Part shown: piece by piece, positions 2,791 through 37,659 of the stretch | How the letters are laid out: each line of letters opens with the position of its first letter | Position numbering within the stretch: position 1 is the stretch's first letter | IMG/VR virus record: IMGVR_UViG_3300031998_000010 | DNA length: 64,000 bases | Source: a virus | Taxonomy: Duplodnaviria; Caudoviricetes | Direction: 5' to 3' (one strand) | Notes under the pieces: model-generated | Told to the model about the DNA's origin: nothing | Databases searched by the model: none | Seen by the model: only the letters and a program-made list of their open reading frames with translations | Translations under genes and position numbers: made by a program

Positions 2791-3990
2791 TTATGCAAAT
2801 AAACTCTGAATGTATGCACTCGGTATCGGCTGGAATGAAGTCATTACTTTTGAATCTGTCCAGTTTGTATTTCCTGTCCAAGCACCTGGTGTTGTTACTG
2901 CCGTAGTACACTCATAAAGTTTTCCGTTATACATAACATAATCACCTAAGGCATAAGTCAAAGTTGTATTAAATGCATCAGCAATTACATCTGACTGTAC
3001 TGCGGTATCCGCTTTTGCTAAGGAAGCCTGAACGGAAGCAGATAAATCAAATGTAATTACATTTGAACCATCAATTGAAATTGTACCTGATGTAGTCGTA
3101 CCGCCTGTGTATAAATCTACAAGGTCTGTGACCTTAATATAAATTGCTGTGCTTGAAGCATTGGCAATTATGAGTTTAATATATTTACCTGCATCAGCCG
3201 CAGTAGCTGTTCCACTTCCTTTAATAGCAGTTGTTACATCGGGTCCTGAAGCTGAACCTTCGTGGAGTGAATCATCGGTGTCAACAAAAACGATTTCAAC
3301 TACAGAACCGCTTTCGACTACCATATCTTTTGGTATGTCGATATTAGCAAGTAATTCTGCAGGAACAGGAGAAGAAGATGAACCATTACCGCCCTGATAA
3401 ATGCCATAACGCTTTGAATATAAATCGCCTGAACCACCTGCGGTTTCTGTAATATATACTGTCTTAGCAGCTACTCCACCACCCGTTGCTTGTGCAATAG
3501 ATTCAATAGCTCCCTGAACGGTGCTTGAACCTGTCTGTGCGGTAGTATCATCAAAAGGTACATTTGTAGCATTAAGAGTTAAACCCTTTACTGTCGGAGC
3601 GCCACTTGCGGTATCTGTACCGAATATGGCTACTTGTCCAGAAGTAAATGATGCACTGGCATCCCCAGATTTTCTGATAACATCATCTTCAGCAAGTCCG
3701 CTATCTACTACTTGACCATTAGAATCCAATGTAGCAATATGACCAGATGTAGCACTTGCTACTTTTGTCATCAATGTAGAAGCGTCAGGGAATGTTACTG
3801 TATATGCTGCAGTAGCTCCTGTTTCTGTCGGGTCAACCTTCCAGAAACTCAATGTAGTAGGTGTTGTCGCAGTATCATAAGTGATATACTTAATTGCCAA
3901 AGCGTCTGCGTCATCCACATACTGCTTTATGAGAGCATCATATTGGGCTAACCCTGCTTTATCTAAATAAAAGAACTTTTCGGTTGCCAT
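2791..3990 (-). CDS. Virion fibre/adhesin protein with C-terminal CBM5/12-like motif
   Basis: AFNTTLTYALGDYVMYNGKLYECTTAVTTPGAW resembles small carbohydrate-binding modules; N-terminus (YLDKAGL) resembles that of 1186..2775 (YLDREGI). Confidence 0.6.
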   Translation of the reverse strand: MATEKFFYLDKAGLAQYDALIKQYVDDADALAIKYITYDTATTPTTLSFWKVDPTETGATAAYTVTFPDASTLMTKVASATSGHIATLDSNGQVVDSGLAEDDVIRKSGDASASFTSGQVAIFGTDTASGAPTVKGLTLNATNVPFDDTTAQTGSSTVQGAIESIAQATGGGVAAKTVYITETAGGSGDLYSKRYGIYQGGNGSSSSPVPAELLANIDIPKDMVVESGSVVEIVFVDTDDSLHEGSASGPDVTTAIKGSGTATAADAGKYIKLIIANASSTAIYIKVTDLVDLYTGGTTTSGTISIDGSNVITFDLSASVQASLAKADTAVQSDVIADAFNTTLTYALGDYVMYNGKLYECTTAVTTPGAWTGNTNWTDSKVMTSFQPIPSAYIQSLFA

Positions 3991-35018: not shown

Positions 35019-35058
35019 GGAGGCTCAACCTCCCTTGTCGGAGTATTTCCGAGTTCCC
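35019..35058 (-). ncRNA. Duplicated RNA motif D copy 1 (GGGAAC-stem-CAA-GGAGG-UUGAG-CCUCC)
   Basis: Second copy at 35301-35349 with a compensated stem. Confidence 0.55.
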
Positions 35059-35260
35059 TCTATTTCATTTGTATACCGCAAATATGAGGTGAATGGATTA
35101 TTGCAATTCTCCAATGCGGTTTTGTTACGCAAGATTGTCATCTCTTTATTTCCTAGCACCGTAACATGTACTGTGTATCTTCCCTTATCGAAGTAAGATA
35201 TAAGTACGCCTCATTGTCGTTGAAGGTACGTCTCGTTGTGACATGAGGTGAGATGACCTC

Positions 35261-35296
35261 TGGTGATAGGTTTTTAATAAGCTACCTATCAAACTT
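35261..35296 (-). repeat. CCA-ended hairpin repeat R, copy 1
   Basis: AAGTTTGATAGGTAGCTTATTAAAAACCTATCACCA. Confidence 0.8.
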
Positions 35297-35300
35297 ATCT

Positions 35301-35349
35301 GGAGGCTCAACCTCCTTTGTTAGAGTTATCAGGTATTCTCTAAGTTCCC
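35301..35349 (-). ncRNA. Duplicated RNA motif D copy 2
   Basis: GGGAAC-TTAGAG..CTCTAA-CAAAGGAGGTTGAGCCTCC. Confidence 0.55.
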
Positions 35350-35547
35350 GCTACCCAAACCTGATTAGCACAAGGACGGTGTTAGGCTGTGAAAACGGTG
35401 GGTGACTAATCCTTTTGGCATTTAGGAAACCGTGACTCCCTTTTATTCATACTCTTTGTTTTACAAGGCGATGCCTACCTTTAGCACTATATCGATGCCA
35501 CCCGCTGAAGTTTCGCAGTCACGCAAGGTATTCAGAATATACCTTTT

Positions 35548-35662
35548 TGGTGAAGAAGGATAGGATTTGCACCTATCAGCGATAACATTCCTAGCCTGAC
35601 TCAACCTCATTGTGAGTAGTTATCATTACAGGATAACCTGTCTGCTATTCCAGCACTTCTTC
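35548..35662 (-). ncRNA. tRNA-like RNA TL1 (Tyr-like GTA loop, ~40 nt extra arm, 6-bp T stem)
   Basis: GAAGAAG/CTTCTTC-A-CCA; TTATC-CTGTAAT-GATAA; GATAGG-TGCAAAT-CCTATC. Confidence 0.7.
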
Positions 35663-35776
35663 ATATAACAGTTTTCATATTGAAAACTTCGGCTTTACCT
35701 ATAAAAGTCACACCCTCGACGCGGAGTGTACGGAATTTCTTATTGAAATGTCTAAAGTCACGTCTATATGACGATT

Positions 35777-35927
35777 TGGTGAAGTAGAGAGGATTCGAAC
35801 CTCTATGTCCTTGATATTGCACCTGCACCCCCAAGAGTCGAACTTGGAGATAGCCGAACTCGAATCGACTCTCACTCAGACTCGTTACTACCGTTCACTT
35901 AGCATTCACCCACTCTGCCACTACTTC
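35777..35927 (-). ncRNA. tRNA-like RNA TL2 (no clear anticodon arm; ~95 nt insert with two extra T-loop hairpins)
   Basis: GAAGTAG/CTACTTC-A-CCA; D arm TGGCAGAGTGGGTGAATGC; AGAGG-TTCGAAT-CCTCT. Confidence 0.7.
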
Positions 35928-36088
35928 ATATAATGCAGATTTGTTTATCGTAAACCTCTTAGGTCACGTTCACCCGTATGAATACTGTTAGAAGTTCTGC
36001 TTCTCCTAGGTACTGCCGTTATTTCGTGTGCTATACCGTATCTCCACGCTAAGATTTTTCTAGAAGAGGTACTTAGGATTAACCTCAT

Positions 36089-36162
36089 TGGCAAGAACAC
36101 AAGGATTTGAACCCTGACTAGCGGTTTTGGAGACCGATGTGCTACCGTTACACCATGTCCTT
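36089..36162 (-). tRNA. tRNA-Trp(CCA)
   Basis: AAGGACA/TGTTCTT-G-CCA, CGGT-CTCCAAA-ACCG, CAGGG-TTCAAAT-CCTTG. Confidence 0.92.
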
Positions 36163-36350
36163 GTATTTGCAAAGATTGCTTTGGCGTTGCTTATAAAATA
36201 ATCAGAACCCTAGGCATACGATTATTTTGGTCAGATGTCTTTGCGGTCATCTCAGTAGATTAGAGTTCTACCATCTCGATTTCCTTGCTTTCGGAGACTG
36301 AAATCAACTCCGCTTGTGTATTTAGCCGAGGAACACAAGAAAAACCTTAT

Positions 36351-36447
36351 TGGTGAAGTAGGTTAGGACTCGAACCTAACAGCTTTCGGATAGTTTTCCG
36401 TCATAATAATTATGACCACCTCGCGTCTACCTTTGCGCCACTACTCC
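36351..36447 (-). ncRNA. tRNA-like RNA TL3 (non-canonical central arms, 6-bp T stem)
   Basis: GGAGTAG/CTACTTC-A-CCA; TGGCGCAAAGGTAGACGC; GTTAGG-TTCGAGT-CCTAAC. Confidence 0.7.
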
Positions 36448-36552
36448 ATATTTTAGTATAACCAAGCCATCTCCCAACAGTTATACTGTACTCCGCACCG
36501 TCCGATTTCTACAACCTCGGTCAAGGGTTTTGACTAGACGGAGTGTCCCAAT

Positions 36553-36649
36553 TTGTGAAGTAGGTTAGGATTTGAACCTAACTTAGATATAAATATCCCA
36601 TCCAAATTCTATAAGAATCCGACTGCGTATGCCATTCCGCCACTACTTC
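36553..36649 (-). ncRNA. tRNA-like RNA TL4 (Leu-like D arm, elongated anticodon-position stem, 6-bp T stem, ends ACAA)
   Basis: GAAGTAG/CTACTTC; TGGCGGAATGGCATACGC; GTTAGG-TTCAAAT-CCTAAC. Confidence 0.7.
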
Positions 36650-36820
36650 ATATCTAATGTGAGTGTGGAGAATCCCCCGAAGTCATCTGCCTCTTCGTAT
36701 TTCCATGTCATTAGGTAGCACTCACAACTACCTGACACTCTAACGGCGAGTGACTACCGCCCTACTGCTCGACATAATCTGCTAAAGAGATTAGCCTTTG
36801 CGCTAACGCAGTATAGGAAT

Positions 36821-36905
36821 TGGCAAGATGGTTCAAGCGTCAGGGCGCGAACCCTCCGTTACTCTCATTTAAGTTAGTACGAACTTGAACGAACTAACCC
36901 ATCTT
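36821..36905 (-). ncRNA. CCA-ended structured RNA (non-cloverleaf)
   Basis: AAGATGG/CCATCTT-G-CCA closing stem; AGGG-TTCGCG-CCCT hairpin; possible TTCAAG/CTTGAA pseudoknot. Confidence 0.6.
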
Positions 36906-36941
36906 TGGTAATAGGTTTTAAAGAGATACCTATATAAACTC
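36906..36941 (-). repeat. CCA-ended hairpin repeat R, copy 2
   Basis: GAGTTTATATAGGTATCTCTTTAAAACCTATTACCA. Confidence 0.75.
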
Positions 36942-36942
36942 T

Positions 36943-37033
36943 TGGTGGGAGTGGCTTATAGTCATATTTGCAAACCCTTGTTTCTCCAAATATTCGTATG
37001 ATATCCTACGAGATATTCAGATTGACTACTCCC
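36943..37033 (-). ncRNA. CCA-ended structured RNA (non-cloverleaf)
   Basis: GGGAGT/ACTCCC-A-CCA closing stem, TAGTCA/TGACTA inner stem. Confidence 0.6.
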
Positions 37034-37069
37034 TGGTGATAGGTTTTTAGACAAGAACCTACCAAACTT
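37034..37069 (-). repeat. CCA-ended hairpin repeat R, copy 3
   Basis: AAGTTTGGTAGGTTCTTGTCTAAAAACCTATCACCA. Confidence 0.8.
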
Positions 37070-37187
37070 GCGTAGACAATGAAGCAACTATCACTCTACG
37101 GCGGCTCATATTCATTTATATAGCACTCCGAATCTCTTAATAAAGATTAACCTCGTCGGGTTGGTTGCATAGCCATCCGAGTGCTTT

Positions 37188-37222
37188 TGGTGATAAGTTT
37201 TTGAAGAGAACCTACCAAACTC
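37188..37222 (-). repeat. CCA-ended hairpin repeat R, copy 4
   Basis: GAGTTTGGTAGGTTCTCTTCAAAAACTTATCACCA. Confidence 0.8.
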
Positions 37223-37285
37223 TATTCAAGGCACGTTGTGTTTCACTTGCTTTTATATTTTATGTATAATTGCTGTATGTGCCTT

Positions 37286-37320
37286 TGGCGATAGATTTTT
37301 AATAAGAATCTACCAAACTT
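37286..37320 (-). repeat. CCA-ended hairpin repeat R, copy 5
   Basis: AAGTTTGGTAGATTCTTATTAAAAATCTATCGCCA. Confidence 0.8.
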
Positions 37321-37331
37321 ACTATTAAATT

Positions 37332-37340
37332 ATCAAGGTT
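37332..37340 (-). promoter_or_regulatory. Motif B-like (AACCTTGATAAT) directly upstream of the R array
   Basis: Motif start lies 20 nt before repeat copy 5. Confidence 0.5.
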
Positions 37341-37344
37341 CACA

Positions 37345-37460
37345 TATAACCGCCAACCCTCAAATCAGAAGATACCAATATCTGTATGTGGTGACATTTC
37401 AAGCGATAAGGCTATATATTGGCTATATCCACACCCCTAATTTGAGGGGTGGCGGTTACA
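37345..37460 (-). ncRNA. Rod-shaped RNA with long terminal stem and internal bubble
   Basis: TAACCGCCA-CCCCTCAAAT pairs with ATTTGAGGG-T-TGGCGGTTA; inner CCAATAT/ATATTGG; starts just after motif A. Confidence 0.6.
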
Positions 37461-37467
37461 TATATTA

Positions 37468-37475
37468 TAACGATT
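37468..37475 (-). promoter_or_regulatory. Motif A (AATCGTTATAAT) heading the RNA cluster
   Basis: Full consensus, overlaps the stop codon of the upstream ORF. Confidence 0.65.
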
Positions 37476-37629
37476 ATCCTTTCGGTTCTTTTTTCATCGG
37501 GTTTTCGATGAAATGGTCTTCTTTATGCAAAAGACAAGAAGTAAGTTCTGCATCGTTCAGACAACATACTGAATGTAATCCGTTTTCCGAAACTACTGTC
37601 CTTGCGTTTAAACATCTATCGCATCGCAT
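37474..37629 (-). CDS. Small Cys-rich protein (51 aa, not in ORF track)
   Basis: MRCDRCLNARTVVSENG...; AAGGAGG RBS; motif A at 37654. Confidence 0.6.
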   Translation of the reverse strand: MRCDRCLNARTVVSENGLHSVCCLNDAELTSCLLHKEDHFIENPMKKEPKG

Positions 37630-37659
37630 TGTTATATCCTCCTTCAGATATAATAACGA

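Follow-up and report, generated by a model that had tools for sequence, protein, structure and literature searches.

The window analyzed here, a stretch of 64,000 nucleotides from the virus record IMGVR_UViG_3300031998_000010 (Caudoviricetes), contains five short repeats that all end in CCA, the terminus of a tRNA, and that lie among other structured RNAs. The question raised by this locus is what such an end does inside a transcript, in some cases directly against the first base of the next RNA. Comparison of the five copies with their relatives in other phages gives good support for reading each repeat as a 37- to 38-nt H-type RNA pseudoknot (hereafter, the knot) on the minus strand, whose two helices, P1 and P2, would be stacked into about 12 bp, as long as the acceptor/T arm of a tRNA, and followed by a single-stranded ACCA. 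As for its role, we favor, with a probability of roughly 0.45 and judging from sequence features, a portable mini-pre-tRNA module that would be handled by the ribonuclease P (RNase P) of the host, would define RNA ends, and would be released as a small CCA-ended RNA.

Fold of the repeats

The 3' half of the repeat has five matches in the window, all on the minus strand, versus 0.91 expected, and none of 100 shuffles reached five. The positions given in the initial annotation for the A of the five CCA ends (35261, 36906, 37034, 37188, and 37286) hold as features of minus-strand RNA, as do the stem changes that it listed, namely, an A-U pair replacing G-C in copy 5 and replacing G.U in copy 1 and a G.U pair in copy 4. 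A hairpin followed by RCCA folds in all five copies. What had been described as a 35- to 36-nt microhelix is nevertheless only part of the unit, as the supposed hairpin loop, CUYNN, pairs with the 4 to 5 nt located before the UUU.

Viral, genome, and metagenome collections were searched with patterns that fixed only the GTTT, part of the stem, and the AAA...RCCA, and these scans yielded well over 100 copies, those of large gut and rumen phages always being next to tRNA genes and in the same orientation. As the patterns left the P1 positions unconstrained, the test of P1 pairing is unbiased. The element consists, from 5' to 3', of the first strand of P1, the UUU of loop 1, the 7-nt first strand of P2, 1 to 2 nt, the second strand of P1, an A-rich loop 3 of 4 to 8 nt, the second strand of P2, and ACCA. 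P2 (7 bp) has the consensus GGUAGGU/ACCUAUC, and P1 (4 to 5 bp, NNRAG/CUYNN) is free to covary. When the copies are placed side by side, the 4 to 5 nt before the UUU always complement the CUYNN directly after the 5' stem strand, with P1 helices as different as CAGAG/CUCUG-type, ACAAG/CUUGU, AGGAG/CUCCU, AUAAG/CUUAU, ACAG/CUGU, and UGAG/CUCA.

Among 76 distinct phage and metagenome copies, we counted 46 P1 haplotypes, in which each of the four Watson-Crick pairs is represented; position 3 is A-U in 36 copies, G-C in 32, U-A in 2, and C-G in 1, while position 4 is A-U in 33, C-G in 10, U-A in 8, and G-C in 8. When partners were shuffled among the haplotypes, none of 10,000 trials reached the observed pairing. 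A gapless alignment of 32 copies points the same way, with 92.7% of the cells paired versus 45 to 55% with slid partners (0 of 500 shuffles reached the observed values) and six pairs with changes on both sides. P2 covaries as well, with U3-A70 replaced by C-G and G5-C68 by A-U or C-G, whereas pair 2:71 stays weak (G.U, U.U, or A-U). The most constant parts are G1 (74 of 76 copies, with pair 1 being G-C in 67 of the 76), the UUU of loop 1 (11 of 11 family copies when the scan pattern did not specify this loop), and R73-CCA, retained in ca. 94% of the copies. The loop lengths can span both grooves under the general rules for H-type knots.

The plain-hairpin model is superseded by the covariation of P1. 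A different pseudoknot pairing, GUUU with AAAA, was discarded, as it implies zero-length loops and has no covariation support, neither side being variable. None of the five copies is called a canonical tRNA (RF00005) by ARAGORN or Rfam, and Rfam 15, which covers the curated families of tRNA-like structures, gave no match for the knot even at E values up to 5. The knot had no match among the cultured phages of INPHARED, where the only matches were to tRNA-Trp. The matches in contigs L004 and L007, like many other pattern matches, are due to chance and lie inside coding sequences.

Transcription from the minus strand, presumed from the start, is well backed by the surroundings, as all 180 tRNAs within 2 kb of 79 distinct copies are on the strand of the knot. 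P2 contains 88 G.U pairs in total, which on the opposite strand would be A.C mismatches. This asymmetry bears on the idea that the repeat acts in DNA, as a promoter or a recombination site. The repeats are found at the borders of swapped cassettes, and the 5' part TAAGTTTG of copies 1 and 5 resembles a Bacteroidetes -7 promoter box; however, the covariation tolerates G.U on one strand only, the hosts appear to be Gram positive, and sigma-70-type promoters are present in contig L006. Repeats of some 36 nt that fold as pseudoknots also recall ToxI and pseudo-ToxI, the RNAs of type III antitoxins, which can be phage borne but follow one another in tandem with no spacers in between and serve as substrates of ToxN, with neither a CCA end nor a tRNA context. 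The copies studied here are interspersed (spacers of 61 nt to 1.6 kb), and the flanking proteins that were scanned included no ToxN-like one. A decoy of CRISPR repeats (Racr), offered at first as the alternative, is rejected: when 185,579 species genomes (one per species) were scanned, none of the 30 stretches found belonged to a CRISPR-like array with regular spacing, and the true copies were in prophage-like contigs. We consider this whole set of explanations (DNA-level signal, ToxI-type repeat, or CRISPR-repeat decoy) scarcely credible.

The CCA junction and a proposed role in RNA end formation

The position of the knot relative to the RNA that follows is strikingly exact. Of 72 distinct contexts, 31 have a stem (6 bp or longer, closed by NCCA) that starts at offset 0 from the knot CCA, compared with 0 to 3 contexts at each of the offsets 1 to 15, and the RNAs flush behind the knot measure 85 to 160 nt. 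The tRNAs of the same loci are spaced differently, as the distance from the CCA of one tRNA to the next tRNA peaks at 4 to 5 nt (typically 3 to 10 nt) and is 0 nt in only 1 of 95 cases. A complete phage of 467 kb has four knot copies, all within its tRNA region, one of them flush between tRNA-Asn and tRNA-Val, and there the tRNA-Val start called by ARAGORN is the base after the knot CCA. This zero-nucleotide junction supports the earlier proposal that one cut would create both a CCA 3' end and the 5' end of the next RNA.

Within the window, stems beginning right after the CCA had been announced for copies 2, 3, and 5. They appear in the folds for copies 5 and 3, and also for copy 1; at the copy 2 junction, the 7-bp closure AAGAUGG/CCAUCUU-GCCA is available and is kept in relatives, although the fold of minimum energy is a different one. 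The 2-nt gap at the copy 4 junction was seen in folding. Structured spacers of 63 to 118 nt had also been reported, a description that fits only copies 5 to 2 (61, 116, and 90 nt), as the transcript runs on for another 1.6 kb before it reaches copy 1, at the far (3') end of the array. Copy 2 is degenerate (its hairpin folds at -3.9 kcal/mol, with a z score of -0.4), and its first A doubles as the last A of the ACCA of the upstream RNA.

The flush ACCA junction also joins units other than the knot. We observed a 95-nt RNA, closed by ATAGGAC/GUCCUAU-ACCA and present in contigs L099, L121, L153, L157, L178, L183, and L187, that always begins right after the upstream ACCA of a knot or of another CCA-ended RNA, which indicates that head-to-tail packing with zero spacers is a property of the whole class of non-tRNA units. 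Modules have been swapped between phages at these flush ACCA borders. The gain or loss of cassettes between relatives, which the initial annotation had set as a check, is seen in contig L101, where a 141-nt CAGAGCA...ACCA RNA takes the place that the 91-nt RNA and copy 2 have in the window, so that the 85-nt RNA adjoins it without an intervening knot. There is good support for considering the knot the shortest and most frequent building block of operons in which CCA-ended structured RNAs are arranged head to tail and which are located in the tRNA regions of large phages.

In the mechanism that we favor, the host machinery that makes tRNA ends would treat the knot as a mini pre-tRNA. The RNase P cut for the 5' end of the next RNA would fall on the base after the knot CCA, and by cutting at this +1 position the enzyme would leave the knot with a finished ACCA-3'OH and no trailer, while a second cut in loop 1 could part the knot from the upstream RNA. 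Every known RNase P determinant is present in the knot sequence, that is, a single-stranded U at -1, G+1:C72, and R73-CCA at the 3' end of the helix. Bacterial RNase P cuts a small engineered H-type pseudoknot in loop 1 only when it has a 3' RCCA, with U at -1 being the best, and turnip yellow mosaic virus (TYMV) RNA is likewise cut by this enzyme (PMC12710915).

Several observations weigh against this mechanism. A cut in loop 1 would destroy P1, processing alone leaves unexplained why the sequence of P2 is conserved beside a drifting P1, and the CCA is mutated in about 5 of some 83 copies. Lacking a T loop, the element may also be recognized poorly by RNase P. We found no fixed register between the knot and the stems upstream, on its 5' side, and CCA-ended units adjoin without any knot in L101 and in 7 of 15 ATAGGAC-type RNAs. 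As these units abut directly, the knot is not indispensable as a separator, and the initial interpretation of the repeats is supported in part.

One could also think of the knot as a 3' end cap that stays on the upstream RNA or mRNA, protects it against 3' exonucleases, and is open to repair by the CCA-adding enzyme, the equivalent of a terminator hairpin. In a provirus, a single knot after a tail gene occupies the very site of an intrinsic terminator in a 74%-identical relative, which fits a role in cis in RNA end formation and counts for the favored mechanism as well. A knot also comes after each of the window RNAs at 37225 to 37285 and 37072 to 37187, which do not themselves have a CCA. Nevertheless, the spacing to the upstream stems is not fixed, knots are also found behind RNAs and real tRNAs that are already CCA ended (such as tRNA-Asn) and must be freed to work, and copy 5 and the single copy of L006 each open their array and are preceded by no RNA. 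We regard the cap as quite improbable.

Any purely cis-acting role is argued against by the dispensability of the knot between CCA-ended units, by its copy number, by the conservation of P2 and ACCA versus the drift of P1, and by its exact 3' end. These same features (five copies in the window and several per array elsewhere, a sequence-conserved P2, loop 1, and ACCA, a CCA end free of trailer, which real tRNAs lack, and no need of the knot for processing) would be expected of a decoy acting in trans, in which released CCA-3'OH knots soak up or mislead the host factors that read uncharged tRNA 3' ends. Candidate targets are the toxSAS toxins (FaRel2 and CapRel), the MenT-type nucleotidyltransferases, and the T-box leaders of Firmicutes. 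What the toxSAS toxins read is limited to the CCA and the first five pairs of the acceptor stem, and a minihelix is accepted as their substrate (bioRxiv 10.1101/2024.07.05.602228), which makes such a role plausible. On the other side, we found no partner, the neighboring genes being of endolysin type or of unknown family; P2 does not consistently match any one tRNA acceptor stem; proviruses carry a single copy in a late structural operon without a downstream RNase P site; and a full-text literature search found no comparable RNA decoy. All in all, we judge the decoy rather unlikely, and its most explicit form, a free-standing multicopy mimic of the uncharged tRNA 3' end that would neutralize or mislead abortive-infection toxins that pyrophosphorylate or extend the CCA end, or the T-box riboswitches of Firmicute hosts, similarly unlikely. 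Should this form prove right, RNA decoys of tRNA ends would be described for the first time in a phage.

Mimicry of one specific tRNA was considered and rejected, as two phage tRNA-Glu and one tRNA-Ser share P2 within one base but the isotypes are otherwise diverse. Many phage tRNA-Glu and tRNA-Ser genes in the arrays (in L182, L183, L154, L003, L137, and others) start with G1-C72 followed by a G2.U71 wobble, the same two pairs as in P2 of the knot.

Likeness to known tRNA-end mimics

The closest structural parallels are the tRNA-like structures of plant viruses such as TYMV and tobacco mosaic virus (TMV), which share with the knot an acceptor arm built by an H-type pseudoknot (supported in the phage element by covariation in both helices), a single-stranded (A)CCA end, and a U before the first acceptor base. 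The mimicry of an acceptor stem already suspected for the repeats is thus borne out by the 7-bp P2, the G1:C72 pair, R73-CCA, and the length that P1 stacked on P2 would give. However, the TYMV and TMV structures are whole L-shaped tRNA mimics that occur once, at the 3' end of an RNA genome, while the phage knot is the arm alone, is multicopy, occurs inside the transcripts of DNA phages, and has no sequence similarity to them. It is not a complete L-shaped mimic: as the unit measures only 37 to 38 nt and is flush with its downstream and sometimes its upstream neighbor, nothing beyond the arm belongs to it. Its CCA is internal to the operon and would be terminal only after processing.

TYMV RNA is valylated (PMC12710915), and the knot could by analogy be a chargeable mini-tRNA, aminoacylated like the plant-virus ends and acting as an amino acid carrier or as a binder of EF-Tu. 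Its architecture is that of the acceptor arms of aminoacylatable viral structures, and its R73-CCA is kept in the great majority of the copies. Minihelices are known synthetase substrates. Against this, the knot has no anticodon or elbow, its variable 2:71 pair leaves no conserved identity element such as G3:U70, and no synthetase or transferase gene is located nearby, all of which makes charging very improbable.

Returning to processing by RNase P, the engineered substrate (a biotin aptamer with a 3' GCCAC; PMC12710915) has in common with the knot a small H-type fold, a 3' RCCA, and U at -1, but it is synthetic and slowly cleaved in vitro, and the phage element is likened to it by sequence features. 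The acceptor-T arm minihelix of tRNAs is also similar, with about 12 bp and N73-CCA, and suffices for several acceptor-end enzymes, e.g., the toxSAS FaRel2; it is, however, a simple hairpin with a T loop, whereas in the knot the strands are permuted (P1 5', P2 5', P1 3', and P2 3') and there is no such loop. Excision of tRNA-like elements by tRNA-processing enzymes, which thereby define the ends of neighboring RNAs, is known from the tRNA punctuation of mitochondrial transcripts and from MALAT1-mascRNA, and the tRNA clusters of phages can also contain small stable RNAs without a known function, such as RNAs C and D of T4. All these elements have a cloverleaf-like or unrelated fold, and none is a 38-nt pseudoknot.

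A full-text literature search found no published description of the knot. It appears, then, that a 38-nt multicopy module mimicking the tRNA end is undescribed in DNA phages, even if its structural principle is that of the plant-virus tRNA-like ends. For forty years, mimicry of tRNA ends by pseudoknots has been regarded as typical of plant RNA viruses, and the occurrence of the same design in DNA phages shows that it has evolved anew in a different setting. The family also provides a handle on the largely unexplored CCA-ended RNAs of phage tRNA regions, which are now viewed as counter-defense loci. Finally, the small size of the knot lends itself to direct tests of whether RNase P accepts it as a natural substrate, whether it can serve as a compact processing tag when RNAs are expressed in multiplex, and whether it acts as a decoy for toxins that attack tRNA ends.

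The array, its genome, and its hosts

The window is part of a large phage genome with nearly all genes on the minus strand, and it codes for an NAD-dependent ligase, an SbcC-like ATPase, helicases, a major head protein, and a head protease. The five knots are part of an RNA operon (Table 1) in which we found no credible open reading frame (ORF). The two phages with the closest SbcC-like gene (contigs L001 and L002, with 66 to 67% identity) have ordinary small ORFs at this place and no RNA array, so the array can be considered an accessory module.

Table 1. Features of the RNA operon in the window. The lower coordinate of each knot copy is the A of its CCA; G+1 is the predicted first base of P2.
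Feature	Coordinates	Strand	Description
RNA operon without ORFs	35029..37659	-	About 2.6 kb; five pseudoknots, tRNA-Trp, tRNA-like RNAs, and several conserved structured RNAs
Knot copy 5, first array element	37286..37322	-	P1 GUAAG/CUUAU; loop 1 UUU; P2 GGUAGAU/AUCUAUC; tail GCCA; predicted G+1 at 37314
RNA from the base after the copy 5 CCA	37225..37285	-	7-bp closure AAGGCAC/GUGCCUU; no CCA of its own; z score -2.8; homologs in L137
Knot copy 4	37188..37224	-	P1 AGAG/CUCU; P2 GGUAGGU/ACUUAUC with a G.U pair; tail ACCA; predicted G+1 at 37216
RNA after copy 4, 2-nt gap	37072..37187	-	Domain closed by AGCACUC/GAGUGCU; homologs 92% identical in L100 and L101
Knot copy 3, consensus	37034..37071	-	P1 GCAAG/CUUGU; P2 GGUAGGU/ACCUAUC; tail ACCA; predicted G+1 at 37063
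91-nt RNA from the base after the copy 3 CCA	36943..37033	-	Closure GGGAGU/ACUCCC; ACCA end; z score -2.8
Knot copy 2, degenerate	36906..36943	-	P1 AAGAG/CUCUU; loop 1 UUUA (one extra base); U.U at P2 pair 1; tail ACCA
85-nt RNA from the base after the copy 2 CCA	36821..36905	-	Closure AAGAUGG/CCAUCUU; GCCA end
Four tRNA-like RNAs with long inserts	35548-36649	-	Paralogs; common acceptor stem GAAGUAG/CUACUUC
tRNA-Trp	36089-36162	-	Called by ARAGORN and Rfam
Knot copy 1, near the array 3' end	35261..35298	-	P1 AUAAG/CUUAU; P2 GAUAGGU/ACCUAUC; 2-nt junction (AG); tail ACCA; predicted G+1 at 35290

The sigma-70 promoter and terminator scans across the array gave nothing decisive. No intrinsic terminator (a G+C-rich hairpin plus a U tract) was found by the terminator scan at any of the five repeats, which have the ACCA and the next RNA in its place. 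A weak sigma-70-like promoter is located at 37329 to 37356 on the minus strand (TTGGCG, 16 nt, and GATAAT), with a predicted start near the first base of copy 5, which would make this knot the 5' end of the primary transcript.

Among bacterial genomes, true copies were found in a Peptostreptococcaceae isolate (strain VA2; one copy, in a provirus on contig JMMB01000007), a Peptostreptococcaceae metagenome-assembled genome (MAG), and a Clostridia MAG, the VA2 copy and its flanks having the same sequence as those of contig L045, classed as a provirus in IMG/VR. The genes that recur next to the knot code for a CHAP/SH3 endolysin, a 3D domain, a zinc ribbon, and proteins of unknown family; we found no tRNA enzyme among the conserved neighboring proteins. 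The CHAP/SH3 endolysin points to Gram-positive hosts, and the large gut and rumen phages that bear the knot probably infect bacteria of this type (Clostridia-like).

Two of the tRNA-like genes with long inserts were also detected in the array by ARAGORN and Rfam. The one at 36555 to 36649 is called by ARAGORN as a 95-nt tRNA-Ile(UAU), and that at 35780 to 35927 (148 nt) matches the Rfam tRNA model with 36.7 bits across an insert of about 75 nt, while the RNA at 35548 to 35665 has, judged by eye, a GUA (Tyr) anticodon loop. In another contig, L005, the RNA right after the knot (3815 to 3884, minus strand) is closed by GGAGAG/CUCUCC. Within it, a D-arm-like segment comes after a perfect T arm (GUCCGGUUCGAGUCCGG), and the gene may be a tRNA-like one that has been permuted or rearranged.

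Two larger RNA modules of the window, both on the minus strand, are conserved elsewhere. A structured RNA of about 175 nt just after tRNA-Trp (35914 to 36091), with no match in Rfam, is 87 to 93% conserved in the 467-kb phage and in other contigs (L003, 1101 to 1279; L006, 5461 to 5620). The other, of about 180 nt (36641 to 36823), starts a few bases past the GCCA of the 85-nt RNA and is 95 to 96% conserved in several metagenome contigs (L157, L167, and L101). Last, contig L173 (359 to 3007, minus strand) codes beside its RNA array for an SNF2-family helicase of 883 amino acids with a LAGLIDADG/Hint insertion, probably an intein.

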